Under the pieces are notes generated by a model. The model ran no database searches. It was given only the letters and a program-made list of their open reading frames with translations, and had not been told where the DNA came from. From IMG/VR virus record IMGVR_UViG_3300018429_000060, positions 27,307 through 91,306 of that record: a stretch of DNA of 64,000 bases; one strand, written 5' to 3'. A program made the translations under genes and the position numbers. The DNA comes from a virus. This document shows, piece after piece, positions 3,588-53,918 of the stretch; position 1 is the first letter of the stretch, and each line of letters starts with the position of its first letter.

Positions 3588-4064
3588 CTACGTGGCCGCT
3601 GCCGAGTCCGGTTCGGGCCGCCGCGGCACCGGGATCCCCCGCGCCGCCAGATAGGCGATCAACGCATCCTCGACGACATCCTGGATGTCGACGTCATGTT
3701 CAGCGGCGTAGAGCCGTACCGCCTGGCGCGCGACCCGCGTCATGTTGCAGTTGAACGCCACCATGTCCATGTCGGTGACTGTCGCCGCCGCGGTCCCTCC
3801 CCGGCGCCGGCGGCTCCTCGTCACCGGCGGCGCCAACGTCCCCGCGGTCCCCGTCGCTGTGCCCGAGGGACGAACACCCGCCGTGCGGGCGGTGCGCGGC
3901 CTGGTGGCCGGCTGAGCCGCCGGTACGGGCGGCTCGGCGGTGGCCGGCTCAGCCGGAGCCAGAGCCGGTGCGGGCGCGGGAGCTACCGCGGCCACCGCCG
4001 CGGGGGCTGTCGGGTCCGCCGGGTGGGTCGACGCGAGTGGGCTGACCCGACGCGGTGCGCTCAT
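3588..4064 (-). CDS. Ribbon-helix-helix partition adaptor (type Ib ParB/ParG-like)
   Basis: ATG overlaps parA stop; disordered N-terminus then VAFNCNMTRVARQAVRLYAAEHDVDIQDVVEDALIAYL (RHH pattern). Confidence 0.75.
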   Translation of the reverse strand: MSAPRRVSPLASTHPADPTAPAAVAAVAPAPAPALAPAEPATAEPPVPAAQPATRPRTARTAGVRPSGTATGTAGTLAPPVTRSRRRRGGTAAATVTDMDMVAFNCNMTRVARQAVRLYAAEHDVDIQDVVEDALIAYLAARGIPVPRRPEPDSAAAT

Positions 4065-4897: not shown

Positions 4898-4942
4898 CGG
4901 AGTCCGCTCCCCTTTCCTGCTCCAGCTCAAACCCCAGCACGC

Positions 4943-5142
4943 GCAATCCTGCATCAGCGCGTCAGCTCCAACGCGTCGACACGCGGAACCACGACCACGC
5001 ACACACGCCAACACCTGGACACGCAGTAGCGCGTCACCGCAGAAGCGCCTCAAGGCACCAGCGCGTCAGCAACAACACGCTGAACGGCCGACACGCATCT
5101 ACCCTGTCCCGCTACCGCACTGTCACGCGTGCACGCTTGAGC
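4943..5142. repeat. Degenerate 8-bp tandem array upstream of parA (putative parS centromere)
   Basis: 25 in-phase octamers, 18 starting with GC and most ending AC/GC (GCATCAGC, GCGTCAGC, GCCAACAC, GCCGACAC ...). Confidence 0.65.
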
Positions 5143-6752: not shown

Positions 6753-7141
6753 CGCGATTCGCGGTACGCGGTACCGCCGACCGGCGGCACTTTCGGCCCT
6801 GAGACGGCCTGTGCGGAGTTCGGCGGTGGCATCACCCTCGGCGACCGGTGTTGGTGCGGCAGCGGCTGACTGAGGGACCGGGGGGAGTGGTTCCGCCAAT
6901 GATCGTCCAGCGGTGTCGGCCGGGGGCGGTGGCTGGTGGACAGCCCGCTCGCGCGCACGCGCGTACGGGACGTAACCCGTAGCACTCAGGTTGAGCCGAT
7001 CACTTCAGCACGTACGGATCCCAGCGCCAGGTTTCGGTCCGCCGGGGGGCGGGGGGCGGCGGTTCGCCCCCCGCTTTGTTGATCTTCGGCTGTGGATGTT
7101 CGTAGTTGGTGTTTTGCCGTTGGTCTTCTTCTTACTACCCG

Positions 7142-7295
7142 CTCCGTACGTCTGTACTCCAGACGTCTGTACTCCAGACGTCTGTACTCCAGACGTCTGG
7201 AGTACAGACGTACGGAGATCAGTCCTGACCTGCGGTTATCATCGGTCTTCGACTGCACTCCGTACGTGCGGAGACCAGTGCTGACCTGCGGTTAT
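7142..7295. repeat. Iteron/palindrome cluster, putative replication origin
   Basis: CTCCGTAC + 3x GTCTGTACTCCAGAC (7150-7194) + one inverted unit (7195-7209) + GTACGGAG; CTGACCTGCGGTTAT at 7225 and 7281. Confidence 0.7.
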
Positions 7296-9819: not shown

Positions 9820-12800
9820 ATGGCAGTCGAAGGCGGCCCGATCGCGCAAGCCGCGGCCGAGCTCGTCATGGACGTCTCCTCGTTCGGGCCCGACGTCAAG
9901 CGCAAGGTCACCGCCGCGGCGGCGGCCGCGGGCAAGGACTTCGACCGTGAGCTGATCAAGGCCACCCAGCGCACCGGCGGTGTGGTCGGCAACGGCATCT
10001 GGACCAAGGTCGAGGACGGCGCCGGCCGCGGCGGTGTCCGCGCCGGGCAGGAGTTCGACCGGGGGGTGCGGGCGGCGACCCGCCGCACCGGCACCCAGCT
10101 GGGCCGGTCCGGCACCCAGGCCGGGTTCTCCTGGGGCAACGCGTTCAAGACAGCGCTGGCGCTGGTGCTCACCGGTGCGCTGCTGCGTGGGGTGTTCGCG
10201 CCGCTGGAGGCGGTCGGCAAGGGCCTCGGGCTGGCCACCGTCGGCGCCGGCGCCGCGGCCGCCGCGGCGGGGCTGCTGCAGATCGTCGCGGCCGCCGCGC
10301 CGGCCACCGGGGTGCTGCTGCTGATCCCGGCGCTGGCGGTGGCGGCCGGCGCCGGGCTGCTCACCCTGCGGGTGGCCCTGTCCGGGATGGGGGAGGCGTT
10401 CTCGGCTGCCCTGTCCGGTGACCCCCGCAAGTTCGCCGAGGCGATCGAGTCGCTGTCGCCGGCGGCGCGGTTGGTGGCGCAGGAGTTCCAGCGGCTGGTG
10501 CCGGAGCTGCACGACATCCGTGACGCGACCCAGGAGGCGTTCTTCGGGCCGTTGCAGGGGCGGCTGACGGCGATCGCCGCCACCCTGCTGGGTCCGGTCC
10601 GGTCCGGCATGGTCGGCGTCTCGGCGGCCAGCGCCCAGGTGGCGCTCGGCCTCGGTGACATCGCGGCCCAGGCGCCCACCACGGCGCTGGTCGCCGGCGG
10701 CTTCGACCTGGCCCGCCTGGCGGTGGCGGCGCTGCTGCCCGGTGTGCTGGCGATCGTGCTCGGGGTCCGTGACCTCGGGGTGGTGGCGCTGCCGCTGCTG
10801 TCGCAGATGTCGGCGGCCACCGGTGGTGTCGCCGTCCAGTTCGGGCAGTGGCTGTCCGCGATCGCCGCGTCCGGTCAGGCGGTCACCTGGATCCAGCAGG
10901 CGCTGGCCACGCTGGCCCAGTTCGGGCAGCTGCTGCTGCAGGTCGGCGGCATCATCGGGGCCGTCCTGGGCGCCGCCCAGACCTCCGGCGCCGGTGCCCT
11001 GGTGACGCTGACGGAGCTGCTGCACAGCGTCAACGCGTTCCTGTCCGGCACCGCCGGGCAGACCGCGCTGGTCAGCATCTTCACCTCGTTGAGCCAGGTC
11101 GGTGCCGCCCTGTCGCCGGTGCTGACCGCGCTGCTGGTGCAGCTCGGCCTGATCGCCCCGTTCGCCGCCCAGATCGCCGTCGCGCTCGGCCCCGGACTGG
11201 CCTCCGCGGTCGGCTCTCTCGGGCAGGCCCTGGTTGGTCTGGGGCCCGGTTTCGTGGCCATCGCGGCCGGGCTGAGCCAAGGGTTGATCGCCGCCGGCCC
11301 CGGCATCATCGCTCTCGCCGGGGCGCTCGGGATGCTGCTCGGGTCGGTGGGTCCGCTGCTGCCCCAGCTCGGGCTGCTGGTCGGGTTGGTCGCCGGCGTG
11401 CTCGGTCAGGCGCTGGTCAGCGTCACCCCCGCGCTGATCGCCGTCGCCGGGGTGGTGCTGCGGCTGCTCACCGCGGTGGCGCCGCTGATTCCCGTGCTGG
11501 GCCAGCTGGTCGCCGTGGTGGCGGTCGCGCTCGTGCAGGCCCTCGATGCGCTGCTCCCGGCGATCGAGCCGATCGTCGCCGGACTCGTCTCCGGGCTCGC
11601 CCCCGTCCTTCCCGAACTCGCCCGCGCCTTCGCCGGCCTGGTGGCCGCCGTGGCGCCGCTGCTACCGCCGCTCGGTGCGCTGATCGGGTTCGTGCTACGC
11701 CTGGCCGGCATCGCCCTGGCCTTCCAGTTCAAGGGCCTGGCCGACGCGTTCGAGCTGATCGCGGCCGTGATCGGCCCCGTCGTCGCCGGCATCTCCCGGT
11801 TCGTGTCCTACCTGGGGTCGCTGGACTTCGGGGCGATCGCCGCCGGCATCGGCGGTGCGTTCGCCGGCGCCGGCGCCGCGATCCTCGGCTTCTTCCGCGG
11901 CCTGCCCGGCCAGGTCGGGCGGGCGCTGCTCGGCCTCGGCCGCGCCACCGGCAGCGCCTTCACCAGCGCCGGTCAGGCCATCCAGGACTTCCTCACCAGC
12001 CTGCCGGGGATGCTCCTGCGCGGGCTCGCCGGCCTGGGGCGGCTCTGGTTCACCCTGTTCACCAGCGCGCTGCAGCTGGGGCTGCAGGCCATCGGCATCG
12101 GCATCGCGTTGATCATCCAGGCGTTCATCGTGCTGCCGGGGCTGATCGGCCGCGGCCTGGTGGCGCTGCCCGGCGTCATCGCCGGCGCCTTCGCCGCCGC
12201 GTGGCGGCTCGCCGTCGACGCCACCACCGCGGCGGTCGCCGCGATCGTGGCGTGGCTGGCCGGGCTGGGCCGTGACGTCGGGTCGATCCTGTCCGCGCTG
12301 CCCGGCCAGGTCGGCGGGTTCTTCCGCGACGCGTTCGCCTCCGGCAAGGCGTGGGTGCTGGACGGGGTGACCGTCATCGTCGGCTACGTCTCGACCCTGC
12401 CGGGGCGCATCGGCGGGTTCCTGTCCGGGCTGCCCGGCCAGATCGGCGCGATCTTCCGCAACGCGTTCGCCTCCGGCAAGCAGTGGGCGCTGGACGGGGT
12501 CAACACCATCGTCGGCTACATCGCCGGCCTCCCCGGCCGCATCGGCGCCTTCGCCGGGCAGATGTTCGACGCCGGCGCCCGGCTGGGGAGCCGCCTGCTC
12601 GACGGGCTGCGTCAGCTCGGGTCGTTCGTGTCCGGGCTGGGGCGGGCGTTGCTGAACTACGTCATCGACGGCATCAACCGCGGCATCAGCTCGGCCTGGA
12701 AGCTGCCCGGTGCGCCGCCGCAGATCCCCCGCATGGCCAAGGGCGCCATCGTCGACAAGGCCACCCTCGCCCTGCTCGGTGAGGCCGGCCGCGAGGTGGT

Positions 12801-13020
12801 CATCCCGCTGACCAAGCCGGCGCGGGCGGTGCAGCTGGCCGCCGACTCGGGCCTGCTCGACCTGCTCATCCGCCAGGGCGCGCTGCGGCCCCGCGGCGGC
12901 GACGGCGCCGTGCAGCAGGTCGTGATCAACGCCCCGATCACGGTGCAGGCGCCGTACTCCGACCCCGAGCTGGTCGCCCTGGCCACCGTCGACCGGCTGC
13001 TGCGTGAGGCGGAACTGTGA
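9820..13020 (+). CDS. Phage tape measure protein
   Basis: 1066 aa Ala/Gly/Leu amphipathic repeats; C-terminal IPRMAKGAIV..ALLGEAGREVVIPL motif. Confidence 0.92.
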   Translation: MAVEGGPIAQAAAELVMDVSSFGPDVKRKVTAAAAAAGKDFDRELIKATQRTGGVVGNGIWTKVEDGAGRGGVRAGQEFDRGVRAATRRTGTQLGRSGTQAGFSWGNAFKTALALVLTGALLRGVFAPLEAVGKGLGLATVGAGAAAAAAGLLQIVAAAAPATGVLLLIPALAVAAGAGLLTLRVALSGMGEAFSAALSGDPRKFAEAIESLSPAARLVAQEFQRLVPELHDIRDATQEAFFGPLQGRLTAIAATLLGPVRSGMVGVSAASAQVALGLGDIAAQAPTTALVAGGFDLARLAVAALLPGVLAIVLGVRDLGVVALPLLSQMSAATGGVAVQFGQWLSAIAASGQAVTWIQQALATLAQFGQLLLQVGGIIGAVLGAAQTSGAGALVTLTELLHSVNAFLSGTAGQTALVSIFTSLSQVGAALSPVLTALLVQLGLIAPFAAQIAVALGPGLASAVGSLGQALVGLGPGFVAIAAGLSQGLIAAGPGIIALAGALGMLLGSVGPLLPQLGLLVGLVAGVLGQALVSVTPALIAVAGVVLRLLTAVAPLIPVLGQLVAVVAVALVQALDALLPAIEPIVAGLVSGLAPVLPELARAFAGLVAAVAPLLPPLGALIGFVLRLAGIALAFQFKGLADAFELIAAVIGPVVAGISRFVSYLGSLDFGAIAAGIGGAFAGAGAAILGFFRGLPGQVGRALLGLGRATGSAFTSAGQAIQDFLTSLPGMLLRGLAGLGRLWFTLFTSALQLGLQAIGIGIALIIQAFIVLPGLIGRGLVALPGVIAGAFAAAWRLAVDATTAAVAAIVAWLAGLGRDVGSILSALPGQVGGFFRDAFASGKAWVLDGVTVIVGYVSTLPGRIGGFLSGLPGQIGAIFRNAFASGKQWALDGVNTIVGYIAGLPGRIGAFAGQMFDAGARLGSRLLDGLRQLGSFVSGLGRALLNYVIDGINRGISSAWKLPGAPPQIPRMAKGAIVDKATLALLGEAGREVVIPLTKPARAVQLAADSGLLDLLIRQGALRPRGGDGAVQQVVINAPITVQAPYSDPELVALATVDRLLREAEL

Positions 13021-15743: not shown

Positions 15744-17645
15744 ATGGGCCGCTGCGGATGCGCCTCCGGCTGCGGCTGCCGCCACCAGGGCCGCAACGGC
15801 GTCATCACCTCGGGCACCGGCTCGGTCGACTCGCCGATCATCGTCGAGCTGGCCAACCCGATGGACACCATCGGCTGCAACGTCATCATGGACTGCGTCG
15901 GGTCACACCTCGGTGCCGGAATGCGCTACGACCCGGTCACCCACCGCGTCGCGGCGCGGCTGTCCACCGACGGCGGCAACACCCTGGAGTTCGGCACCGA
16001 CAACGGCCTGTTCACCGGCGGCGCCGGCGGCGCCGGCGGCTTCGCCACCGTCCAGTCGCTCGTCGACGCCACCGAACCGGTCGTCGGCAGCGTCTACGGC
16101 GCCGGCTACACGCAGTACCCCGAGGGGCGGCTGGAGAGCTACGAGCAGGCCATGGCCATCGAGCTGCCGCTGATCCAGGTGCCGGTGCGCCGCTCCGCGG
16201 ACCGGCGGCTGTGGGCGGTGCACTACCGCAACCTGGGGTTCTACAACTGGCGCTACGCCGGCCTCATCACCGACGGGTTCGACCAGAAGATGGGCCGCCA
16301 CGTGTGGCTCACCCCCGGCGGTGAACCGACCATCAACCCGGCCACCAGCGAGAAGGGCTTCACCGCCCTGGCCGGGTACATGGGCTACGGCACCCAGGAC
16401 TCCTACGGGCTGGCCACCGTCGCCGACGTCGCCCGCGTCGTGCAGCGCCGCGCGGTGCTGCTGCTGGACGTCCTCGACATCGGCCTCGGTCCCGCCGACA
16501 CCCCCGCGCCGAGCCTCACCTACAGCGCGCTGCGGACGCTGATCCGCCGCATGGGACTGACCGCGTCGGCGATCGTGTGCTCGGAGTGGCCGCTGTCGGC
16601 CACCCCGGCCGAACGCGCGGAGATCCGCGCCGGGCTGCTCGCGCTGCTGTCCGACGGGGTGGCCATCGGCCTGCGGATCATGACCGCGGCGACGGCCGCG
16701 GCGATGACCCCGGCGGCCATGGTCGCCGACGGCTACACCTGGGTGATCGTGCACTACGCGCTGGCCGACACGAACCCGGCGACGGTGAAGGCGTACAAGG
16801 ACGCCGGGCTGCACGTGCTGCTCACCCCAGGGCACCGGCAGTGGCAGTACGAGCTGATGCGCGACGCCACCACGTTCGGCCCCGGCGGGCTGAAGGGCAT
16901 CCTCTGCTCCGACCCGCTGTACTGCGCCGGCGAGCAGTTCGCCCACGTGGTGCGGCGGCCGTTCGTCGACTGGTTCTGGGGCACCCCGGACTACGGCCGC
17001 CACGCGGCCTGGTCCGACGACATCCCCGGCGCGCACGCCCGGTACCGCGGCTACACCAACAGCGGCGAGGGCGGCACCCTCTCGCTGGACGGCAACATCC
17101 TGCTGCCGGGCGATGATCCCTCGTACCGCACCACCGGCTACTACCTGCTCGCCGGAGAGCTCAACCCGATCGCCTGGCCCCAGTACGACCTGGAGGTCGG
17201 GTTCGTCTGGCAGGCGCTGACCACCGACCGGACCCGGTGGATCGCGGTCTGGTTCGGCTCCCCGAACGACCGCGACCTGCGCGAGTGGACGTTGGCGACC
17301 ACTCACACCAAGGGCTACAACCTGCAGCTGACCCAGACCGGCCAATTCGTGCTGGAACGCTACGACGGCGTGGTGGGCGCCGACCCGCCCTACCAGTCGG
17401 TGCTGGTGTGGGAGTCCGGGTGGGGCACCGTCACCCCCGGCGTGCAGTACCGGATCAAGATCCGGGTCCGCGGCGACCGCATCATCGTCGGCCCCGCGTC
17501 GGAGACGAGCTCCGGGCCGGGCACCCGCGCCCTGATGGACACCACGTGGCGCGGTCCCTACCTCTACTTCGGCCGGCATTTCTTCCACAACGCGGACTCG
17601 GTCCGTATCCGCTGGGTGCAACCGGTCATCACCGAGGTCCCGTGA
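15744..17645 (+). CDS. Tail fibre/receptor-binding protein with GDPD-like TIM barrel
   Basis: N-terminal CGCASGCGC and RLSTDGGNTLEFGTDNGLF anchor; PE..LESYEQA..VRRSAD..AVH, GILCSDPLY (degenerate GDPD); beta-rich C-terminus. Confidence 0.7.
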   Translation: MGRCGCASGCGCRHQGRNGVITSGTGSVDSPIIVELANPMDTIGCNVIMDCVGSHLGAGMRYDPVTHRVAARLSTDGGNTLEFGTDNGLFTGGAGGAGGFATVQSLVDATEPVVGSVYGAGYTQYPEGRLESYEQAMAIELPLIQVPVRRSADRRLWAVHYRNLGFYNWRYAGLITDGFDQKMGRHVWLTPGGEPTINPATSEKGFTALAGYMGYGTQDSYGLATVADVARVVQRRAVLLLDVLDIGLGPADTPAPSLTYSALRTLIRRMGLTASAIVCSEWPLSATPAERAEIRAGLLALLSDGVAIGLRIMTAATAAAMTPAAMVADGYTWVIVHYALADTNPATVKAYKDAGLHVLLTPGHRQWQYELMRDATTFGPGGLKGILCSDPLYCAGEQFAHVVRRPFVDWFWGTPDYGRHAAWSDDIPGAHARYRGYTNSGEGGTLSLDGNILLPGDDPSYRTTGYYLLAGELNPIAWPQYDLEVGFVWQALTTDRTRWIAVWFGSPNDRDLREWTLATTHTKGYNLQLTQTGQFVLERYDGVVGADPPYQSVLVWESGWGTVTPGVQYRIKIRVRGDRIIVGPASETSSGPGTRALMDTTWRGPYLYFGRHFFHNADSVRIRWVQPVITEVP

Positions 17646-34353: not shown

Positions 34354-36222
34354 ATGGCTGTCGTCGTCCACGTCTACGGGGTTCCGCCGGTCCTGCACGG
34401 CGAGCGGGTCCGGCTGCCCGCCGAGGTCGACGAGCAGCTGTCCTTGGCGCACTGCCTGCGCGAAGACCTCGTCACGCTGGAGCACCAGCGGCAGGACGCG
34501 GTCACCGCCGTCTGGTCCAGCTACCCGCAGATCGCCGCGATCGAAACCCAGCTCACGGCCGCCGAGACCGAGCTCACCGACCGTTCCGCGGCCGCGGCCG
34601 CGGAACGGTCCGCGGCCCGCAAGAAGGGTCCGACCGAGTCCTCCGAGGCGGTGCGTCAGCTCAAAGCCCGCATCAAGGACCTGCGCAGCCAGCGCCGCAC
34701 CGCCATCGCCGACGCCCACCCGACCGCCACACCGCGGCTCACCGCGATCGCCGACGCCCACCGCGCGGCCATCAAGGCCCTCTACGCCGACTACAGCCAG
34801 GGCCGCGGCCTGTACTGGGCCACCTACAACGACGTCGTTGCCCATCACCAGGTCGCCACCAAGAGGGTCGCGGCCGAACGCAAAGCCGGCCGCCCCGCCA
34901 ACATTCGGCATCACCGCTACGACGGCTCCGGCAGCATCACCGTGCAGCTCCAACGCCAGACCGGCGCACCGCCCCGGCTGCCGGCCACCATCGCCGACGA
35001 GCAGAACGGCCCCTGGCGCAACGTCCTGTACCTGACACCCTGGGTCGACCCCGACACCTGGGCCACCCTGGCGCGGGCCGAGCAGCGCCGCCGCCGCCTC
35101 GGCGTCGTTCGCCTCGACCTCGGCAACAAGCGCCACCTCAGCATCCCGGTGCTGGTCCACCGCATGTTGCCGGCGGACGCCGACATCACCAGCGCCCGGC
35201 TCGTCGTCCGCCGCGTCGCCGGCCACCGCAAGATCGAGCTGCACGTCACCGCCAGGATCAAGGATCCGGTGACCCGCTCCGGCGGGCCGGCCGTCGCCTT
35301 GCACCTCGGCTGGCGCCGCGAGGACGGCGGCGCCGTGCGCGTCGCCACCTGGCGCAGCACCGCCCCTGTCCACGTGCCGGACGACCTCAACGACCTGGTG
35401 CACGCCGACACCGACCACACCGGCACCATCTCCCTGCCCGCGCGCTGGTGGCACCGGGTGTCCACCCAGCCCGAGATGGCGGCCCGACGCGCCACCTCGC
35501 TCAACGACATCCGAGACCAGCTCGTCGCAGCCCTGACCGACAACCCACTCACGATCACCGCAGACGACGAGGACGCTCAGCCGGTCCCGACCGCCGCGGC
35601 GGTCGCGACGTGGCGTTCACCGGCCCGGTTCGCCCACCTCGCACGCACCTGGGCCACCGACTGCCCCGCAGGCCACCAGGCCACCGCCGCCGCCCTGGAA
35701 AACTGGCGACGCAGCGACCGCCGGCTCTGGGAACAGCAGGCGCACGGCACAGCCAATACCCTCGCGGCCCGCGCCGATGCCTACCGACGGACGATGTCCT
35801 GGCTACTGACCGGCGCCAGCCGACTGGTCCTGGACAACACGGCCATCGCCGACCTGGCCCGCCGCGCCGATCCCGCGACAGAGCCCACCCTGCCCACCGC
35901 GGTCACCGACCGGGTGGCCCACCAACGCATCGGCGCCTCACCCGGCCAACTCCGCAGCATCGCCACCACCACAGCGAACTCCTACGGCGTGGCCGTCGCC
36001 GTCATGCCCCACACGGGCATCACCCGCACCCACTACCGATGCGGACACCTCAATCCAGCCGACGACCGCTACTCGGCCGCCCGGATCGTCACCTGCGACG
36101 GCTGCGGTCAGCACTACGACCAGGAATCATCCGCAACCCTCATGCTGCTCGCCGCGAGCGGCGACGTGGCAGCACCCGGCAGCGCCACCGCTCGCAACCC
36201 CGACACCAGCGCACACGCGTAG
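34354..36222 (+). CDS. cas12m: Type V-M CRISPR effector Cas12m (V-U1/C2c4), 622 aa
   Basis: Blocks recalled from Mycolicibacterium Cas12m: QL.LAH.LREDLV, WSSYP, LYWA..N.V..HH, RHHR.DGSG.I.VQLQRQ.GAPPR, VHR.LPADADIT, VALHLGWR (His in RuvC-I), TRTH.RCGH.NPADDRY, CDGCG..YDQ; array directly downstream. Confidence 0.93.
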   Translation: MAVVVHVYGVPPVLHGERVRLPAEVDEQLSLAHCLREDLVTLEHQRQDAVTAVWSSYPQIAAIETQLTAAETELTDRSAAAAAERSAARKKGPTESSEAVRQLKARIKDLRSQRRTAIADAHPTATPRLTAIADAHRAAIKALYADYSQGRGLYWATYNDVVAHHQVATKRVAAERKAGRPANIRHHRYDGSGSITVQLQRQTGAPPRLPATIADEQNGPWRNVLYLTPWVDPDTWATLARAEQRRRRLGVVRLDLGNKRHLSIPVLVHRMLPADADITSARLVVRRVAGHRKIELHVTARIKDPVTRSGGPAVALHLGWRREDGGAVRVATWRSTAPVHVPDDLNDLVHADTDHTGTISLPARWWHRVSTQPEMAARRATSLNDIRDQLVAALTDNPLTITADDEDAQPVPTAAAVATWRSPARFAHLARTWATDCPAGHQATAAALENWRRSDRRLWEQQAHGTANTLAARADAYRRTMSWLLTGASRLVLDNTAIADLARRADPATEPTLPTAVTDRVAHQRIGASPGQLRSIATTTANSYGVAVAVMPHTGITRTHYRCGHLNPADDRYSAARIVTCDGCGQHYDQESSATLMLLAASGDVAAPGSATARNPDTSAHA

Positions 36223-36328
36223 GCTCTCCCCCCAGCCAGCACCGACGCACCTTGAAACCTGAACCTCTAGACCAGCGCTCGCGATGATCTCCATGTGGCC
36301 TGGTCAATCGCGTCTCGTACAGCGAGCT

Positions 36329-36913
36329 GTCGCAACGCCTGCGTCGGGGCCTCGTGCCGACGACGAGTCGATCTGGCGGGAGGCTTGTCGACTCCCGGAG
36401 CTGTCGCAACGCCTGCGTCGGGGCCTCGTGCCGACGACCTCTGCACAAGCGCCGGGACGTGCTCGACACGACCTGGTCGCAACGCCTGCGTCGGGGCCTC
36501 GTGCCGACGACCTCTGCACAAGCGCCGGGACGTGCTCGACACGACCTGGTCGCAACGCCTGCGTCGGGGCGTCGTGCCGACGACGATGCGCCCACAGCCT
36601 GGTCGCACCGCCTGTGTCGGGGCGTCGTGCCGACGACTATGCCCCTTCGTGTGGCGGTGCTGTGGTGGCCGAGTGGTCGCACCGCCTGCGTGGGGGCGTC
36701 GTACCGACGACATGCTGATGAGTGATGTTGGGTCGCGGTGGTGACGTCGCACCGCCTGCGTGGGGGCGTCGTACCGACGACGCGGATGCATCCAGCCGAG
36801 CGCGTTCGCGCTCCAAGTCACACCGCCTGCGTTGGGGCTTCGTACCGACGACACGGTTCTGGTGTCGGTCATACACGGCGCATCGCCTGCGTGGGGGGCG
36901 TCGTGCCGACGAG
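36329..36913 (+). CRISPR. CRISPR array, 9 repeats / 8 spacers
   Basis: 36-nt repeat GTCGCAACGCCTGCGTCGGGGCCTCGTGCCGACGAC at 36329, 36403, 36476; variants at 36549, 36602, 36676, 36746, 36817, 36877. Spacers 38, 37, 37, 17, 38, 34, 35, 24 nt; 3' stem CGTCGG/CCGACG + AC. Confidence 0.97.
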
Positions 36914-36945: not shown

Positions 36946-37851
36946 CTAGTGGTGCACGTCGAGGTAGTCGGCGATCATCTGGTCGAGTAGCTGCCACGGC
37001 TTGCCGGGCTCGACGGTTCCCGAGTCCACCGCCGCCTTCAGGGCGCGGGTCAGGGCGGCCGCGGTGGCTGCCGGCACGGTGCGACTGCCCAGCACGACCT
37101 CCAGGCCCACGTGGCCGCGGTGTCGCGGTTCGGTGGACATCGGGTCCAGGTAGCCGTCCTGCAGGTCGGTCAGGTGTCGTTCGGTGAGCGCGACGAGGAT
37201 GCCCATGGCGGTGGCCACGTTGCCCACGTTGTGCGCCGAGTGCGCCGAGGCGAGCGCGTCCAGGGTGGGCTGGTAGTCCTGGTAGGCGGCCAGCCACCGT
37301 TCGTCGGAGGTGCGGCCCAGCTGGTCCAGGGCGTCGCGGGCGGCGTCGGCCTCGCCGGCCAGGAACACCAGGTTCACCGTGTGGAAGGACAGGTTGGCCT
37401 CCGACAGCGGTTCCAGCGCGATCCGATCGAGCAGGTCCAGGGTCTTGTCGTCCAGGCCGGCGTAGGCGCGTTCGTCGATGTCGTCGATGCCGTCGTAGAG
37501 CTGTTTGAGGATGGCCAGGTCGTCGTCGCCCTCGATGGCGTTGTGCGACAGCTGCATCGCTAGCTGCCGCGCCTTGGGTAGGTCGTCGGTGACGAGCAGG
37601 AACCAGGCTTCCTCCAGGTCGGCGGCGATGCCGGCCTGGACTCGGTGGTTGCCCGACAGCACCAGCTCGTGGCCTTCTGCGTACTCGCCGGCGCCGCTGT
37701 AGATGAGCGGGGTGGAGGTGAGGGCGCCGTCGGTGCGGATGTTGGAGACGAGCCGGTCGAACTGTTCCTTGGTCATGTAGCGGGCGTTGACGTCGAGCAG
37801 GGTCAGGTCGGTCAGCCGGCGCCGCACCGGCAGCGGCTCGGACAGCCTCAC
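36946..37851 (-). CDS. ParB/Srx N-terminal domain protein
   Basis: NARYM...FDRLVSNIRTDG, VLSGNHRV, QLSHNAIEG; GTGA coupling. Confidence 0.85.
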   Translation of the reverse strand: MRLSEPLPVRRRLTDLTLLDVNARYMTKEQFDRLVSNIRTDGALTSTPLIYSGAGEYAEGHELVLSGNHRVQAGIAADLEEAWFLLVTDDLPKARQLAMQLSHNAIEGDDDLAILKQLYDGIDDIDERAYAGLDDKTLDLLDRIALEPLSEANLSFHTVNLVFLAGEADAARDALDQLGRTSDERWLAAYQDYQPTLDALASAHSAHNVGNVATAMGILVALTERHLTDLQDGYLDPMSTEPRHRGHVGLEVVLGSRTVPAATAAALTRALKAAVDSGTVEPGKPWQLLDQMIADYLDVHH

Positions 37852-38288
37852 CGCAACGGTCCCCGCACCACGCCGGCGGCCTCGTCGACGATCACCAGGT
37901 CGGCCGACAGTCCCTTGATCGGACCCGGCTGCCGTGGTCGCACCGCCGCGGCGTACTCGGCGGCGGCCACCGCCGCCAGCAGGCGCGGCCGGTCCTGCTC
38001 GGTGTCGCCGTAGATGGCCACCGCGCCGTCGACCAGCTGCACGCGCCATCCGTCGCCCGACCACACCACCCCACCCGGCTCGTCCGGCTCCGGCAGCAGC
38101 GCCTGCGACTGACTGATCAGCCGCACGGCGTGGCTCATCTGCTGCCCGGCGGCCTGCAGCGCCGGCACCAGCTGGCCCAGCCACGCGGCCACCTCGCCCA
38201 GCGACGCCACCAGCTCCCGCTGCAGCCGGCCGTGCGTCTCGTCCGGGTCGGAGGTGTCGTCCGGGTCGGTGTCGGGGAAGCCGGTCAT
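37848..38288 (-). CDS. Hypothetical protein with terminase Walker-B-like tail
   Basis: AGGAG RBS; ends IKGLSADLVIVDEAA. Confidence 0.6.
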   Translation of the reverse strand: MTGFPDTDPDDTSDPDETHGRLQRELVASLGEVAAWLGQLVPALQAAGQQMSHAVRLISQSQALLPEPDEPGGVVWSGDGWRVQLVDGAVAIYGDTEQDRPRLLAAVAAAEYAAAVRPRQPGPIKGLSADLVIVDEAAGVVRGPLR

Positions 38289-38878
38289 AGTGCGACTCCT
38301 GCGTGTTGGTCGTGCATGATGTCGCCGGTCCACAGCGCGAGCTCGGCGGCCAGGACGAGGTCGTCGTGGCCGGTGGACGCCTCGTGCTTCTGGTAGCCGG
38401 TGCTGGTGGGCCGGGCGCGGAACCGGCCGAGCTGGTCCCCGAACGCCCGCGCGTTGGGCAGCTCCGGGGGGATGGTCACGCCGCGTTGTTCCAGGGCGAC
38501 CTGCAGCACCTCGGTCAGACGGTGCTTGCCCACGACGTACTCGTCGGGGTTGCTGTGGGTCAGGGTGCGGCCGGAGCTGATGCTGACCGCCACGATGTGC
38601 AGGTCCGGGCCGGCCTTGCGGGCCATCTCGACGACCGCGGCGCCGATGCCGGTGGCGTCGATGGTGGCGACCACCGGGTAGCCGGCGTCGACGAGCTCCT
38701 GGGCGACGGTGACCAGCAGGTCGGCCAGCTGCTGGTACGGGGTGCCGAGCTCGATGTTGCCGATGGAGAGCAGGTCCCACAGCGGCCGGTGCGAGTTCGG
38801 CCGCAGCCCCACGGTGCGCAGCGCGGCGAGCGCCGCCGGGTCCTGCTCCTTGCCGACGTCGAGGCCGAGCGAGATCAC
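38285..38878 (-). CDS. Stand-alone terminase large subunit nuclease (RNase H-like) domain
   Basis: LGLDVGKEQD, IDATGIG, HDDLVLA..LA.W: acidic catalytic set intact. Confidence 0.85.
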   Translation of the reverse strand: MISLGLDVGKEQDPAALAALRTVGLRPNSHRPLWDLLSIGNIELGTPYQQLADLLVTVAQELVDAGYPVVATIDATGIGAAVVEMARKAGPDLHIVAVSISSGRTLTHSNPDEYVVGKHRLTEVLQVALEQRGVTIPPELPNARAFGDQLGRFRARPTSTGYQKHEASTGHDDLVLAAELALWTGDIMHDQHAGVAL

Positions 38879-39159
38879 CGGCCGTCCCCGGCGAGGTCGG
38901 CGCCGTAGCCGCTCAGGGCGTGCTGCAGGGTCAACCAGTGGCCGGTGTCGCGGGCGGCGGCGACCCCGAGGGCGGCGCGGATCATGGTGGCGGCCAGCCG
39001 TTCGTCGCTCAGGTCACCGACCAGGTTCCCCGACGCCGTCAGGTGGGTGCCGTGGTTGTCGCAGATCGTGACGTGCACCATCAGCATCGGCTCGGTGCCG
39101 TCGTCGTCGTGGTGGTTCTCGACGGTGATCGGCACGTCGGTCCTCGAGGTCGTGGTCAC
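38875..39159 (-). CDS. Hypothetical protein
   Basis: GTGA coupling at both ends. Confidence 0.6.
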   Translation of the reverse strand: MTTTSRTDVPITVENHHDDDGTEPMLMVHVTICDNHGTHLTASGNLVGDLSDERLAATMIRAALGVAAARDTGHWLTLQHALSGYGADLAGDGR

Positions 39160-40547
39160 CGCGCCACCCCGGTCACCACCACCGGCCCCGCCGCCGCGTC
39201 GGCGGCCGTGGGGGTGAGGTGGGTGTGTTTGGCCTGCCACAGCTCCAGCGCCTCCGCGAGCGTCCACTGTCCGAGTGGCCCGCCGTACTGCAGCTGGTAG
39301 GTGTGGATGCCGTCGTCGCAGGGTTTGCGGCTGGTCAGTTTCACGCCGGGGATGCCGCGGCCGTACTTGGCCGACGTCGGGTTGTTGGTGAACGCCGTGG
39401 TGGCCCAGCCGAGGACCCGCTTGGACAGGGCCCGCTGCACCAGCAGCTGCGCCTCGTGGCTGATCGCGGCCATCACCACGAGCTTGGACAGCCGCCGCCA
39501 CTTCGACGGGGCGACCGCGAAGTCGGACATCAGGTAGGCGTCCAGCCCGAACTTCGGCGGCAGGTACCCGAACGCCCCGATGATCTTGCCGCCGGTGGAC
39601 ACCGCGCAGGAGAACAGCGGCGCGCCGGGGGCGATGCCCCGTCCCAGGTAGGCCGAGCGCAGCCCGTTGAACTGCGGTCCGGTCAGCGGGTGCAGCCGCA
39701 GGTCCTCACCGAGGTCGTCCTCGGGTGCCAGCCGGGCCATCAGCACCGGTTCGGTCTTCTGGTGCGGGCCGACGTAGCGGGCGATGCCCGGCTGGGCGAA
39801 CACCCAGATCGGCATCGCCCGCGGCCCGGTCTGCACGAACCCGACGCGGTAGGGCTCCAGCTGCGGCAGCTGGTAGTGCAGCCCGAGCAGCCAGTGCGGC
39901 CGGTCGATGACCAGCTGGATGATCTCGTTCTTGCCGTCGTCGTCCAGGATCTCGTAGGACGGCTCCGGCCAGTCGAAGTGGTCCTCGATGCCCTTGAACA
40001 TGGTCTCGTAGCCGGCCGCCCAGAACGGCGGGAACGACGCCACCGGCGCCTCCGGCGGGGCCTGCCGCAGGTACTCGCGCACGTCGCGGGCGTCGAACGA
40101 GGACAGCCGCAGCGTCGCCCTGGCGAGCTTGGCCACCGTGTCGGCGTGCAGGGTCGGCCACTGGTCACGGTAGGCGGCCACCATCCGCCGGTGGTAGGCG
40201 CCGGTCTTGCCGACGAAGGAGAACCAGCGGGTGCCCAGCATCAGCGTGGCCAGGGTGCCGATGCCGTCGTCGAGGTAGTCGTAGAGCCAGGACAGCTCCT
40301 CGACGAACTCGTCCTTGACGGTGAACGGCACCGGCTGCCCGGCGAACTGCCACCCCAGGGCGCACGAGTACGGGTTCACGTCGTTGGAGTGCAGCCGGAA
40401 CTCCCGCTCCGGGCAGGTCCCGGCCAGGGTGCGTTCGATGGTCAGGTTCCCGGAGCAGCCCACATAGACGTCGGCGCCGGCCGGCCACAGCCGGGCGTGC
40501 TGGGCGACGATGCTGCGCATCTCGGCCGGGATGGTGCCCTGGAACAC
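39156..40547 (-). CDS. Putative DNA-modification protein (MTase-like N-domain + GNAT/Mom-like C-domain)
   Basis: GGAGG RBS + GTG; VYVGCSGN, LHSND, SFPPF (atypical motif IV); C-terminal GKIIGAFGY..YLMSDF..RLSKLV..TTAFT..SAKY GNAT-like pattern. ORF secure, function inferred. Confidence 0.65.
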   Translation of the reverse strand: MFQGTIPAEMRSIVAQHARLWPAGADVYVGCSGNLTIERTLAGTCPEREFRLHSNDVNPYSCALGWQFAGQPVPFTVKDEFVEELSWLYDYLDDGIGTLATLMLGTRWFSFVGKTGAYHRRMVAAYRDQWPTLHADTVAKLARATLRLSSFDARDVREYLRQAPPEAPVASFPPFWAAGYETMFKGIEDHFDWPEPSYEILDDDGKNEIIQLVIDRPHWLLGLHYQLPQLEPYRVGFVQTGPRAMPIWVFAQPGIARYVGPHQKTEPVLMARLAPEDDLGEDLRLHPLTGPQFNGLRSAYLGRGIAPGAPLFSCAVSTGGKIIGAFGYLPPKFGLDAYLMSDFAVAPSKWRRLSKLVVMAAISHEAQLLVQRALSKRVLGWATTAFTNNPTSAKYGRGIPGVKLTSRKPCDDGIHTYQLQYGGPLGQWTLAEALELWQAKHTHLTPTAADAAAGPVVVTGVAR

Positions 40548-40624
40548 GCTCGGGCCTCCGCAGCACAAATCTGGGCTGGGGCGCCCGGCCACGGATGCCA
40601 GTCGACGCACAACAACGGTGAGTG

Positions 40625-40696: not shown

Positions 40697-40819
40697 ATGA
40701 CTCGTCGCGGATGGTAACGCACCGCAGGTCAGGCTGCCCCTAGACTCCCCGGTGACGATCACCGGGCCTGGCGCACATGGCCGCCGGAAGCACTCGTGCT
40801 TTCGGGAGGGCCCGCCGGC

Positions 40820-41488
40820 GTGTCGACGACCTTCCGTTACGCCTCCGGCCGGGACATGTGGGACCGGCAGCTGGGTGAGCCGGCCGAGGAATACGACTGG
40901 TTCCTGCACTGGCGCAACGAGGCCCACCGCCGCACCTACGTGGCCACCGCGCTGAAGTTCGGGATCAGCCCGGTCACGGTGACGCGGGTCGCGAAACAGA
41001 ACCGCTGGCCCGAACGGCTGCTGGCGTGGAAGGCCGACAACTCGCGGCTGCTGCACGAGCGGTTCACCGATCTGCTCGAACAGTCGATGGTGCCGTTCGC
41101 GCAGGGCATGGTGCGGATGGCCGCCCACACCGCCCGCGCCCCGCTGGACAAGATCCCGGCCGATCGGGCGATGACCGCGTTCGCCGCGGCCCTGCGGGTG
41201 ATCAAGGAACCGGGCATCGCGGACCTCATCCGCATCTCGGCTGCGTCCGGGATGGCCAACCGCGAGATCGACCTCGCCGCGGTCATCCTCGACCGGCTGG
41301 CCGCACAGTTCCCCGAGGCCCACGACGCGGTCCTGGACGCACTGGACGCCGCCACCCAGAACCCCGCCGGGCCGCTGGTCCTCGACGCCGCCCCCGTCCC
41401 GGCCGCCGTCCCCGCCGGCGCCGGCGGCGCTGTCGACGGTGGTGTCGACGACGGGGACGACTGCGTGATCGACCCAGGGAACGGCTGA
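40820..41488 (+). CDS. Terminase small subunit-like protein
   Basis: WDRQLGE..EYDWF, HTH, RW.ER..AW; directly upstream of the terL ATPase. Confidence 0.7.
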   Translation: MSTTFRYASGRDMWDRQLGEPAEEYDWFLHWRNEAHRRTYVATALKFGISPVTVTRVAKQNRWPERLLAWKADNSRLLHERFTDLLEQSMVPFAQGMVRMAAHTARAPLDKIPADRAMTAFAAALRVIKEPGIADLIRISAASGMANREIDLAAVILDRLAAQFPEAHDAVLDALDAATQNPAGPLVLDAAPVPAAVPAGAGGAVDGGVDDGDDCVIDPGNG

Positions 41489-41492
41489 CCCC

Positions 41493-42317
41493 ATGGCGTC
41501 CGTCACGGTGCTCTCGGAGTTCCTGGCCCGTCGCGACCCGGCCCGGATGATGCGCCAGGCCGGGATGCCCCCCGACACGTGGCAGTCCACCCTGCTGCGC
41601 CGCCGACCGCACCGGGCGCTGGTCACCACCTCCCGGCAGGCCGGCAAGAGCAGCGTCGCCGGCGCGATGGGCCTGCACCGCGCCGCCGAGAAGCCCCGCC
41701 AGACCATCGTCGCCGTCTCGCCCACCCAGCGGCAGTCCGCGCTGCTGGTGTCGAAGGTCCGCCGCTACGCTCAGGCGCTCGGGCTGCAGCTGGCCCGCGA
41801 CAACACCCTGTCGCTGGAGCTGGCCAACGAGTCCGTCGTGTACGCGCTGCCCGGCCACCCGGACACCGTCCGCGGCTACTCCCCCGACCTGCTGATCATC
41901 GACGAGGCCGCGTACACCACCGAAGCGCTCTACACCGCGTGCCTGCCGATGCTCGCCGCCACCGGCGGCGACCTCATCGCCATCTCCACCCCGAACGGCA
42001 AACAGGGCTGGTACTGGGCCGAGTGGTCCGGGCAGGGCGCACCGGGCTGGATGAAGATCCAGGTCCCCTACACCCGCATCCGGCGCATCAGCGCCGAGTT
42101 CATCACCTCCCAGCGGGCGTCGATGTCGCGGGAGCGGTTCTCCACCGAGTACGAGTGCGCGTTCAACTCCTCCACGTTCGGCCTGTTCAACGCCGGCGAC
42201 CTGGCCGCCGCGCTGCAGGCCGAGCCGATGGCGGCCGGCGGCGGTGGCCTGCCCGACGCGCGGGAGATCATGCGCCGCAACCGGGACCGGTTCGCCGCCG
42301 GGCAGGCCGCCTCATGA
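41493..42317 (+). CDS. Terminase large subunit, ATPase domain only
   Basis: PDTWQ, SRQAGKS, SPTQRQS, RGYSPDLLIIDEAA, ISTPNG, F.TEYECAF; stops at 274 aa. Confidence 0.92.
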   Translation: MASVTVLSEFLARRDPARMMRQAGMPPDTWQSTLLRRRPHRALVTTSRQAGKSSVAGAMGLHRAAEKPRQTIVAVSPTQRQSALLVSKVRRYAQALGLQLARDNTLSLELANESVVYALPGHPDTVRGYSPDLLIIDEAAYTTEALYTACLPMLAATGGDLIAISTPNGKQGWYWAEWSGQGAPGWMKIQVPYTRIRRISAEFITSQRASMSRERFSTEYECAFNSSTFGLFNAGDLAAALQAEPMAAGGGGLPDAREIMRRNRDRFAAGQAAS

Positions 42318-43141
42318 GCACCCCGCCGCTGGCGCCGCGGCAGCAGCGCACCGACGCCCCCGCCGGCCCCGACGCCCGCGTCCTGGCCCTGGACATCGGC
42401 CTCTACGGGCACCTCGGGTCGATCAGCTCGATGTTCTGGTACCAGCGCGGTGGGCTGCTCCACGCCCACCAGGCGCAGCTGCTGCCCGAGGGTGCGACCC
42501 TGCTGGACCAGCTGGACATCCTGGAGGCGACCGCCGCCTCCTACGAGGAGTACCGGCGGATCAGCCCGGTGGTGGTCCTCGGTGTCACCGTGCTGTCGCC
42601 GGTCGGCCGCCGCGAGGTCCGCGGCCACCTGGAGTCCTGGTTCAACCCGCCGTGGCGGCGGCGCCTGGTGGCCATCGGGGACTACGCCGGCGAGCACATC
42701 GCCGTCCGCGGCCTGGTCTCCCGCAAGAAGCTGCGGGACCTGATCTCGACCCGGCTGACCGAGCACACCCTCACGCTCACCCCCGAGCAGCACGACGCCG
42801 TCGCCCTCTACACCGGCCGCCGGGAGAAACCCGGCCGCGACCCGGACGACGAGTGGCGCACCGACGAGGTCGACGCGGTCGCCCTGCCGGTGGCGCTGTC
42901 CTGCCTCGGCGCGACGGCGCTGCTGCCGGCGCCGATGCCCACCCCGCAGCAACGCCAACGCGACCTCGAGCGCGCGATGCGCGCCTGGCAGGTGCAGCTG
43001 GACCTGTCCAACGACGACGCCTGGGACCGCGCCGTGCGCCACGGCCACCCGCACCACCAGACCACCGCCGCTGTCAGCGGCGCCGTGCCCATGCCCGACC
43101 GGTCCACCCCGACCTTCGGCAGCCTGCGATGGAAGGACTGA
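42314..43141 (+). CDS. Degenerate terminase nuclease-like protein
   Basis: VLALDIG, VSRKKLRDLI, EWR.DEVDAVALPVAL echo the terL C-domain; several acidic residues altered. Confidence 0.55.
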   Translation: MSTPPLAPRQQRTDAPAGPDARVLALDIGLYGHLGSISSMFWYQRGGLLHAHQAQLLPEGATLLDQLDILEATAASYEEYRRISPVVVLGVTVLSPVGRREVRGHLESWFNPPWRRRLVAIGDYAGEHIAVRGLVSRKKLRDLISTRLTEHTLTLTPEQHDAVALYTGRREKPGRDPDDEWRTDEVDAVALPVALSCLGATALLPAPMPTPQQRQRDLERAMRAWQVQLDLSNDDAWDRAVRHGHPHHQTTAAVSGAVPMPDRSTPTFGSLRWKD

Positions 43142-43143
43142 CC

Positions 43144-44808
43144 GTGCGCCTCATGAGCAAGGTGACGGACCTGCTGCGGTGGGCCACCCCCGCCGCACCG
43201 GCCGCGCCCGAACCGCCGGCGTGGACCCCGCCGCCGCTGTCCACCGCGGCCGCCCTGCCCGTGCCGGCCATCTACCGGCCGGTGGTCGCCGCGGCCGCGA
43301 GCGCCGCCCTGGCCACCGCCACCACCTACGCCGGCGTCGCCACCGGCGCCCGTACCGGCGCGGGTGTGCTCACCGCGGCCGTCCCGACCGCCGGCGACAT
43401 CGGCGCCGTCACCGCCTCCCGACTGCCTCGCGCCCTGCAACCACCGCGGCCGCGGGAGTGGCAGGAACGCGCCTGGGCGGCCTGGCGGCACTGCGGCGAG
43501 GCCCGCCAGGCCGTCGAGTGGATCTGCAACAACCTGTCCCGCTGCCACCTCTACATCGGCGACGTCGACCCCGCCAGCGCCGGCGACCCCAAACCCGCCG
43601 CCACCCCCGGCCTGGCCGGCGACATCCTCGCCGAGCTGCACAACGGCCGTCTCGGGCAGAGCGCCATGCTGGCCCGCCTGGGGCTGCACCTGCTGGTGCC
43701 CGGCGAGAGCTGGCTCGCCGGCTACCCCCGCCCACCCGCCGCCGGCGGCACCGCCGCCGGCGATGACGGGCAACCGGCCACCCAGTGGAGCGTGCTGTCG
43801 CGCCGCGAGTGGTCCGAGGTCACCGACACCCACATCCGGTTCAAGCTCGCCGACCACCCCAACCCCGGCGCCGACGGCTGGGTCACCTTCGCCTCCGACG
43901 AGGTCGTGCTCATCCCGATCTACGTCCCCGACGCCGAGGACGCCACCACGGCCACCAGCGCGTTCGAGGCCGCACTGGACACCCTTGACGAGTTGTTCGG
44001 CCTGTCGCGGCGCGTCGCCGTCGACATCAAGTCGCGGCTGGCCGGCGCCGGGGCACTGCCCATCCCCGAGTCGGCCACCCTGCCCACGCCGGGCGCCTCC
44101 GACGGCCTCAACGGCCTGCACGGCGACCCGTTCGTCGCCGCGTTCGCCCGCGCCGCCAAGACCGCCATCCAGAATCCCGACGACGTGGCCGCGCTGCTGC
44201 CGATCTTCTTCCGGGTGCCCGACGAGTCGTTGACCGGCAACGGCTTCAAGCTGATCACCTTCGCCACCCCGTTCGACGCCCAGGTGCCGGTGCTGCGCCA
44301 GGACGCCCGCCGCACCCTGGCCGCCGACCTGAACATCCCGGCCAGCATCGTGCTCGGCGTCGAGGACCTGAACCACTGGTCGATGTGGGGCGTCACCGAG
44401 GACGCCCTGAAGTCCCACATGGGACCGCTGGCGGCGATCATCTGCACCCAGCTGACCATCAAGGTGCTGTGGCCGGCGCTGCGCGCCGCCGGCGAGACCG
44501 ACGTCGAGAAGCGCTGCATCTGGTGGGATCCGTCCGAGGTCGTGCTGCGCCCGGACGGCTCCACCGTCGCGCTCACCGCGCACCGCGACGGCGTCATCGG
44601 CGGCAAGGCCACCCGCCGCGAGATCGGCTTCTCCGAGGAAGACGCCCCCACCGCCGAGGAGACCGCGGCCCGCGCCGCCGCCAACCAGCCCCCACCGGCC
44701 GGCGCCCAGGGTGAGGACGGCGGGCAGGCCACCCCGTCGCAGCGGCCCAACCCACCCGCCGACGACGGCGACAGCACCCCCGACGGCACCCCACCCGCCC
44801 AGCAGTAA
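43144..44808 (+). CDS. Phage portal protein (actinophage type)
   Basis: WQERAW..GEARQ..W..N.LSR, L.VPGE.WL, SRLAGAG, NHWSMW. Confidence 0.85.
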   Translation: MRLMSKVTDLLRWATPAAPAAPEPPAWTPPPLSTAAALPVPAIYRPVVAAAASAALATATTYAGVATGARTGAGVLTAAVPTAGDIGAVTASRLPRALQPPRPREWQERAWAAWRHCGEARQAVEWICNNLSRCHLYIGDVDPASAGDPKPAATPGLAGDILAELHNGRLGQSAMLARLGLHLLVPGESWLAGYPRPPAAGGTAAGDDGQPATQWSVLSRREWSEVTDTHIRFKLADHPNPGADGWVTFASDEVVLIPIYVPDAEDATTATSAFEAALDTLDELFGLSRRVAVDIKSRLAGAGALPIPESATLPTPGASDGLNGLHGDPFVAAFARAAKTAIQNPDDVAALLPIFFRVPDESLTGNGFKLITFATPFDAQVPVLRQDARRTLAADLNIPASIVLGVEDLNHWSMWGVTEDALKSHMGPLAAIICTQLTIKVLWPALRAAGETDVEKRCIWWDPSEVVLRPDGSTVALTAHRDGVIGGKATRREIGFSEEDAPTAEETAARAAANQPPPAGAQGEDGGQATPSQRPNPPADDGDSTPDGTPPAQQ

Positions 44809-50756: not shown

Positions 50757-51524
50757 TTGCATCGACCAGCGCAACCCTCGCGGCCCGACCGCGACGACAC
50801 CACGGTGGCCGCGCTGCACGAGATGGTGATGACCATGTTCCGCCCGGCCGGGGCGCCGCTGCAGCTGCGCTGCCCGGCCACCACGGCGTTTCAGCAGCTG
50901 TGGCAGGTCACCACCGAGACGATGTCGTCGGCCTGGTGTGACCGGTTCGCCGCCGACTACGCGCGGTTCCTGTGCGCGACGATCCGCGAGATCCAGACCC
51001 GGCACCAGGTCCTCGATCGCGACAGCTACCTGGCGTTGCGCCGCGAGACCGGCGGCGTGCTGCACCTCACCGACCAGATCGAGTGGGTCGGCCGGTTCGA
51101 GCTGCCGCCGCAGGTGGCCACCCAGCCGACGATCACCGAGCTGCGGTCGGTGGTGGCCGACGTCGTGGCCTGGATCAACGACGTGCAGTCGGTGGAGCGG
51201 GAGCTGGCCCGCGGCGACCGGACGCACAACCTGGTGCTGGTGGTCGAGGCCGACCGGGGCTGCGGCCGCGAGCAGGCGATCGCCGAGGTGGTGGCGATGA
51301 CCACGCTGGCACTGCGCCGGGTCGACGAGCTCGTCGACGCGGTGTCGGCGCTGTGCGGCCAGCTGGGCCTGGCGGGCGAGTACCGCCGGCGGGTCGAGCG
51401 CTACGTGGTGGGCTGCCAGGACGTGATCGCCGGCTACTACGACTGGTCGGGGCGGTCGTCGCGCTACGGGCCGCCGGCCGGCGCCGCGCCGGTGGTCGAC
51501 GACCTGCTCACCAGCGGTGCGTGA
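50757..51524 (+). pseudogene. Class I terpene synthase, N-terminally truncated
   Basis: YLALRRETGG (pyrophosphate sensor R), NDVQSVERE (NSE), HNLVLV, WSGRSSRY; no DDxxD helix. Confidence 0.7.
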
Positions 51525-53674: not shown

Positions 53675-53918
53675 ACCCGAACTCGACCGCGCGGAGCTGG
53701 AGCTCGCCTACAACGTGACGCTGCCCGCCCGGTTCATCCCGACCGAGGTGTTCCCCGGCATCGACGGCGGCGCCGGCGGTGACGGCGGTGAGTGCACCGT
53801 CGTCGCCGGCATCGACGCCGGCGGTGCGGCCCTGTTCTGCCTGACCTGCGAGGCGTCCGGGATCGCCGAGGGTCTGCTCGACCACGACGCCGTCCAGAAC
53901 TGGCACTCCTGCCTCTGA
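53667..53918 (+). CDS. Hypothetical protein
   Basis: GGAG RBS; overlap with previous gene. Confidence 0.55.
   Translation: MCEPELDRAELELAYNVTLPARFIPTEVFPGIDGGAGGDGGECTVVAGIDAGGAALFCLTCEASGIAEGLLDHDAVQNWHSCL

Follow-up and report, generated by a model that had tools for sequence, protein, structure and literature searches.

Type V-M CRISPR systems show strong enrichment on plasmids and also occur in some prophages, and competition between mobile elements is their presumed role (Koonin and Makarova, PMC11656645). Their Cas12m effectors, with H-D-D, D-E-D, or N-D-D residues at the RuvC site, bind DNA that has a flanking protospacer-adjacent motif (PAM) without cutting it, process their own precursor CRISPR RNA (pre-crRNA) independently of RuvC, and act as roadblocks to transcription or replication, thereby blocking plasmids and phages (PMC10442227, PMC11013384). 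The Cas12m of Gordonia otitidis (GoCas12m), whose triad has been published as H322-D497-D590, uses a 5'-TTN PAM and mediates binding-only interference against plasmids and phages (PMC11013384). A D-E-D Cas12m of the myxophage MV-1 has been reported as the first phage case (preprint 10.64898/2026.09.14.751636). Here we describe a cas12m gene, leader, and CRISPR array in IMG/VR virus record IMGVR_UViG_3300018429_000060. The DNA analyzed (the window) is 64,000 nucleotides (nt) long, has a G+C content of 72%, and makes up the right-hand 64 kb of this 91,306-bp record (positions 27,307 to 91,306). By sequence comparison, the locus is a minimal type V-M system (Cas12m2-like) and not an IS605 TnpB element, and we consider it likely to be an intact V-M locus (cas12m, leader, and array) carried as an accessory cassette by a temperate siphovirus-like actinobacterial phage. 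Its parts are as follows, in window coordinates.

34354-36222, plus strand: cas12m, type V-M effector, Cas12m2-like, 622 amino acids (phmmer against PDB; 40-sequence alignment A2)
36223-36328, plus strand: leader, 106 nt (shared motifs in an alignment of five leaders)
36329-36913, plus strand: CRISPR array of nine repeats and eight spacers (sequence and covariance model)
36342-36362, plus strand: helix CGTCGG...CCGACG of the CRISPR RNA (crRNA) handle, repeat 1 as the example (covariation)

An earlier reading of the bare sequence, here called the original prediction, had placed a 622-amino-acid effector, a 106-nt leader, and a nine-repeat array at these positions, and all three are present.

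The Cas12m effector and its RuvC site

A GTG at position 34270 is an alternative start that would give a 650-amino-acid form of Cas12m. We took the ATG at 34354 as the start because GAAAGGGG lies before it, because the N terminus read from this codon agrees with the family pattern MxVxVYxYGV, and because a database holds an identical protein of the same 622-amino-acid length. The frame is open, with a host-like third-codon-position G+C of 0.90. The protein has a REC2 insertion and a C-terminal zinc-ribbon TNB domain in which the CxH...CxxC ligands are conserved. A large protein database contains 125 clusters of relatives at an E value of ≤1e-10, nearly all of ~600 amino acids, and the closest nonidentical relative is 57% identical. 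Identity to GoCas12m is 43% in alignment A2.

When the effector was compared with PDB by phmmer, the best match was GoCas12m (8pm4; E = 6.9e-131), followed by MmCas12m2 of Mycolicibacterium mucogenicum (8hhl, 9.5e-130; 8hio, 1.3e-129). These alignments, described as full length, span residues ~47 to 630 of the 650-amino-acid form. The alignment to characterized Cas12m proteins that had been proposed as a check gave an end-to-end match to all three structures. The same search bears on the possibility that the gene encodes the nuclease TnpB of an IS200/IS605-type transposon with a repeat-rich flank, and no CRISPR effector. The effector does show weak TNB-domain and TnpB-family matches (a subthreshold match to Pfam Cas12f1-like_TNB and 11.2 bits, against a cutoff of 100, for NCBIfam guided_TnpB), which are expected because Cas12 and TnpB share ancestry. 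However, TnpB structures were matched only at an E value of 0.63 over 57 residues, compared with full-length matches near 1e-130 for Cas12m, and this difference settles the question for Cas12m; clustering with TnpB, set beforehand as the refuting outcome, was not seen. Whereas TnpB proteins have ~400 amino acids and a D-E-D triad, this protein has 622, the REC2 insertion, and a His at RuvC-I, and its gene is flanked by a regular repeat-spacer array. We regard a TnpB identity as exceedingly improbable.

Mapping through A2, an alignment of 40 sequences from which the triad column counts were also taken, sets the RuvC triad of this protein, H317-D494-E591, opposite H322-D497-D590 of GoCas12m. H fills the first column in 37/40 sequences, and D fills the second in 33/40 and the third in 37/40; E occupies the third position in 2/40. 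The RuvC-I His in the motif VALHLGWR, to which the original prediction had drawn attention, is present and aligns with H322 of GoCas12m; it is a family trait, found in 37 of the 40 relatives, and no peculiarity of this gene. The third residue has to be corrected to Glu (E591) from the Asp of the published H-D-D triad, and the resulting H-D-E site reads as a conservative variant of that triad.

The residues that handle DNA and RNA in MmCas12m2, with roles taken from PMC10442227, were compared in a pairwise alignment with 8hio in which the letters at the residues named in that paper agree with the chain numbering. The PAM contacts Y141, W152, N156, and Q197, the crRNA contacts H269 and R270, the backbone contacts R237 and R241, and the nontarget-strand (NTS) pocket residues R111 and R112 are all identical here. 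R126 and R245 are replaced by Leu, with Arg residues adjacent. Because the four PAM-reading residues are kept and both characterized H-D-D enzymes (MmCas12m2 and GoCas12m) read 5'-TTN, we predict a 5'-TTN PAM for this Cas12m by analogy.

Leader, array, and spacers

Eight of the repeats are 36 nt long and the ninth is a degenerate 37-mer; spacers 1 to 8 measure 38, 37, 37, 17, 38, 34, 35, and 24 nt. Spacer 3 repeats spacer 2 exactly, and two others are short: spacer 4, with 17 nt, and spacer 8, with 24 nt. A 28-nt repeat core, searched with up to three mismatches, matched eight times, always on the plus strand and within the array, against an expectation of 0.00 and no match in 100 shuffles.

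The leader was aligned with those of four IMG/VR contigs:

Five aligned leaders: window 36223-36328; L009:11760-11880; L010:7295-7418; L011:11860-11992; L013:7540-7664

All five share GCTCGCG, then C(A/T)GGTCA, and then GCGAGC directly against repeat 1. These motifs might fold into a hairpin in the leader, act as a promoter, or serve as an integration signal. Their conservation at five loci supports a leader on the cas12m side of the array and transcription on the plus strand. The outer motifs GCTCGCG and GCGAGC are reverse complements of each other.

To define the crRNA handle, we used a covariation set of 18 repeats from five loci, aligned without gaps. In columns 14 to 19 and 29 to 34 (CGTCGG/CCGACG in this array), 98% of the cells are paired, five of the six helix pairs show changes on both sides, and none of 500 shuffles reached the observed covariation; sliding the partner column cut pairing to 33 to 49%. 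A second arm, GCC (columns 9 to 11) with GGC (columns 20 to 22), is invariant, and because it crosses the first helix, the repeat would form an H-type pseudoknot. At its 3' end the repeat closes with A(-2)C(-1), and the base before them is the G of a noncanonical G:A pair; in repeat 1, A(-2) and C(-1), the last two bases before the spacer, lie at 36363-36364. Cryo-electron microscopy of the MmCas12m2 crRNA shows the same repeat architecture (PMC10442227), and the handle helix here is offset by one nucleotide relative to the MmCas12m2 numbering. The 3' stem and terminal AC, together with a 5' CGCC facing the loop GGC(G), had been read from the letters at the outset; these elements are present, and the stem is now supported by covariation. 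When the repeat of a Mycobacterium intracellulare plasmid was compared by eye, it added another four compensatory pairs to this helix. Folding individual repeats by minimum free energy was uninformative in this GC-rich sequence (z of ~0), and the array had no match in Rfam. The same repeat family follows relatives of the effector in six IMG/VR contigs and in the M. intracellulare plasmid. The repeat is assigned to the Cas12m2 repeat family.

We also searched for parts that the locus lacks. A six-frame Pfam search of the whole 91,306-bp record found no match to Cas1, Cas2, or Cas4 at an E value of ≤1, which extends to the full record an absence originally noticed in the window. No anti-repeat or minus-strand repeat match occurs in the window, and the repeat-core, anti-repeat, and covariance-model searches agree with the earlier observation that no trans-activating crRNA (tracrRNA)-like anti-repeat is present. 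With its filters switched off, the repeat covariance model was run over the whole record (~91 to 93 kb) and scored the nine array repeats at 36 to 55 bits and everything elsewhere at no more than 20.6 bits; it detected no solitary repeats outside the array, and the residual matches were two-stranded noise. The best of them, at window positions 53799-53830 on the minus strand (20.6 bits; rough E value of 0.009), lacks four loop nucleotides, is antisense to the small gene that contains it, and is probably due to chance. Overall, every V-M property that can be checked in sequence was found at this locus.

The original prediction had recommended comparing the spacers with IMG/VR, PLSDB, and the host genome; searches of phage, plasmid, and IMG/VR collections gave no credible target. 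A BLASTN search with the array, run against 50,697 phage records and 72,556 plasmid records, returned only matches with E values of at least 0.2, and exact 22- to 24-nt PAM-proximal searches of IMG/VR with five spacers returned nothing. Two candidates were rejected as chance matches. Spacer 2 resembled genes annotated as "TraM-recognition / T4 coupling protein," but the matches needed gaps and fell at nonhomologous positions in the gene (around codon 191 in Rathayibacter and codon 528 in Streptomyces). The first 22 nt of spacer 1 occur exactly in a 1.1-kb metagenome contig (L022:899-920) that is visibly much lower in G+C than the 72% of the window; the 5' flank is GCC and not TTN, and the sequences diverge beyond 22 nt. 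Spacers from related viral arrays showed no cross-targeting with this phage.

There were also no self-targets, since no spacer matches the element itself beyond 13 to 14 nt. This result bears on a regulatory alternative, in which Cas12m, as one element of lysogeny control, would be directed at genes or transcripts of the phage itself or at genes of the host, and not at foreign elements. Binding without cutting would suit such a regulator, but besides the missing self-targets, the covariance model found no repeats outside the array in the whole record, the next best match being the 20.6-bit one antisense in a gene. We consider self- or host-directed regulation very unlikely.

Several features of the locus weigh against its being intact and functional. 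The third RuvC residue is Glu in place of Asp, as in only 2 of the 40 relatives; a simple scan found no sigma-70 consensus promoter in the leader; the handle helix has a G-G mismatch in repeats 6 and 7; the terminal repeat, number 9, is degenerate; the array includes one duplicated spacer and two short ones; and no protospacer was found for any spacer in the phage, plasmid, IMG/VR, or self searches. With the exception of the promoter, the same features would fit a decaying relic, that is, a nonfunctional cassette captured from a plasmid or host whose array is eroding for want of an adaptation module. The repeats do drift stepwise going away from the leader: repeats 1 to 3 are identical, in repeats 4 and 5 the handle helix is still perfect (by way of a U-G wobble in repeat 5), the mismatches of repeats 6 and 7 follow, and repeat 8 has a wobble pair in the helix. 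Part of the array may indeed be inactive, because the distal repeats are degraded, a spacer is duplicated, and two spacers are short. However, such drift is the usual polarity of array aging, and distal repeat decay is normal in active arrays; the five leader-proximal repeats have a perfect helix, the 622-amino-acid frame is open with its third-position G+C of 0.90, and every functional residue checked is kept. Even the 17-nt spacer still equals the 17-bp heteroduplex of MmCas12m2 (PMC10442227). We therefore judge a relic to be unlikely, though somewhat less so than a regulator, and favor an intact V-M locus.

The carrier phage

In IMG/VR the record has the class provirus, having been taken from a larger contig (122 kb), with a CheckV completeness of 75%. 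A gene scan identified the following features around the cassette.

4061-5053: ParA-type ATPase
9820-13020: tape measure, upstream of the cassette
15744-17645: tail-fiber-like gene, upstream of the cassette
36946-40610, minus strand: operon encoding a ParB-N-like and a phage DAM-like/GNAT protein, close downstream of the array
40796-41488: small terminase, downstream of the cassette
41493-42317: TerL ATPase, downstream of the cassette
42244-44808: portal (portal-like part of the open reading frame), downstream of the cassette
50757-51524, plus strand: terpene-synthase-like gene, 255 amino acids (Pfam Terpene_syn_C_2, 7.6e-32)
Further to the left in the 91-kb record: genes for a MuF-like protein, the major head protein, and the major tail protein

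The phage morphogenesis and packaging set (small terminase, TerL, portal, tape measure, MuF-like protein, head, and tail) is thus present, and the cassette sits between phage genes. Because packaging, head, and tail genes surround the cassette, we call the carrier a phage, and more specifically a temperate siphovirus-like actinobacterial phage. The record also contains two tyrosine-recombinase-like genes. The packaging, head, and tail genes and the ParA-type ATPase bear out the original placement of the cas12m locus inside a mobile element. Of the phage-plasmid character first proposed, the phage part stands on the virion genes; for the plasmid part, the ParA-type ATPase and ParB-N-like proteins were seen, and no replication initiator or plasmid replication module was recognized among the genes scanned.

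Other observations concern the layout and cargo of this phage. The head, tail, and packaging modules are out of canonical order across the 91-kb record. The long portal open reading frame at 42244-44808 matches phrog_776 positions 39 to 445 only, and a 145-amino-acid open reading frame far from the portal gene (G000 6849-7286, L033) resembles the portal C terminus, phrog_776 positions 504 to 618. The Terpene_syn_C_2 gene is an unusual phage cargo.

We also considered phiM2, a 90-kb phage-plasmid of Streptomonospora litoralis, as a relative of the carrier. Two phiM2 genes are counterparts of the genes downstream of the array:

L020:48879-50000 and L021:1-1112: neighboring phiM2 genes, 57% (ParB-N-like) and 65% (DAM-like/GNAT) identical

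The candidate was rejected: only 4 of ~95 genes are shared, phiM2 is without cas12m, and the remainder of the element is unrelated to this carrier.

Proposed role and relation to known systems

Competition between mobile elements or host gene silencing, the roles suggested in the original prediction, are putative, and the biological role rests on analogy because no spacer target was found. Going by MmCas12m2 and GoCas12m, the leader would drive transcription of the array on the plus strand. As in the orthologues, Cas12m would itself then process the pre-crRNA, leaving a guide preceded by a 36-nt 5' handle, and the complex would recognize 5'-TTN-flanked double-stranded DNA through an R-loop of ~17 bp. 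It would stay on its target without cutting, so that transcription or replication of the target would be blocked. For the prophage, this would amount to programmable, noncutting exclusion of competing phages or plasmids, and new spacers, if still acquired, would come from Cas1-Cas2 of the host or of another element acting in trans.

By this analogy, we consider it most likely that the locus works as a nondamaging exclusion device for the prophage; the relic, the self- or host-directed regulator, and the TnpB nuclease are all less likely. A fuller scenario can be offered only tentatively: a temperate actinophage would use a binding-only H-D-E Cas12m as a reprogrammable repressor, its lysogen would exclude rival phages and plasmids without DNA damage, and a leader conserved across phage and plasmid V-M loci would allow the array to be renewed in trans.

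A profile-derived scan of IMG/VR identified at least 12 viral contigs with effector relatives, and those of contigs L008 to L013 are 36 to 49% identical to this effector, with the same repeat family and the same leader motifs. No homologue occurred in any of 400 other Actinomycetota species genomes sampled (0/400), a result in keeping with a gene carried by mobile elements. In a FastTree phylogeny, read without its support values, this protein groups with Logan and IMG sequences in a clade sister to that of L008 and L009. Together with these two contigs it falls in a subclade sister to the Gordonia/Mycobacterium group, to which the characterized enzymes belong. Contig L008 has the most similar effector of these (49% identity) and the same portal family, phrog_776, with the portal ~7.5 kb downstream of the gene, as in this window; L011 has a tape-measure homologue in common with this carrier. 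Otherwise, L008 to L013 share almost no genes with it.

Their arrays differ as well. L008 has degenerate mini-arrays flanking the gene (L008:9771-9909 and L008:12001-12092), with a 51- to 56-nt period and spacers of ~15 to 20 nt, whereas L010 and L012 have 30 repeats. The latter two (L010:7412-9653 and L012:7469-9710) are the same V-M array from different metagenomes, with nearly all spacers identical, and this array is large though adaptation genes were not seen nearby.

The locus provides a well-documented V-M case inside a phage with recognizable virion genes. Together with its IMG/VR relatives, it shows that actinobacterial viruses, and not plasmids alone, repeatedly carry Cas12m2-type loci, a recurrence that bears on how mobile elements compete using noncutting CRISPR systems. 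It also adds one more orthologue (622 amino acids; predicted TTN PAM) for CRISPR interference (CRISPRi) and base-editor panels. The suggestion of a new compact scaffold is weak, as the protein is no smaller than MmCas12m2 (596 amino acids) or GoCas12m (607 amino acids).

Among described systems, MmCas12m2 (PDB 8hhl, 8hhm, and 8hio; Wu 2022; Omura 2023, PMC10442227) shares the RuvC-I His and the RuvC-II Asp with this protein, and its locus likewise has a 36-nt pseudoknot-handle repeat ending in AC and lacks both a tracrRNA and adaptation genes. The two proteins differ, however, at about half of their residues, the third RuvC residue is Asp there and Glu here, and the carrier there is a mycobacterial replicon rather than a phage or provirus. 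GoCas12m (8pm4; Bigelyte 2024, PMC11013384), the best PDB match, shares the H-D-x triad class with the effector described here. The MV-1 locus also has eight spacers without identifiable targets, but its effector has the canonical D-E-D site and its host range is Myxobacteria, in contrast to the H-D-E site and 72% G+C actinobacterial phage described here. The V-M systems of plasmids and prophages (PMC11656645) are likewise borne on mobile genetic elements and consist of effector and array only. Since V-M loci on plasmids and in some prophages have already been published, this locus is a fairly ordinary further member of the group, in which the H-D-E site and the conserved leader are small points worth recording.

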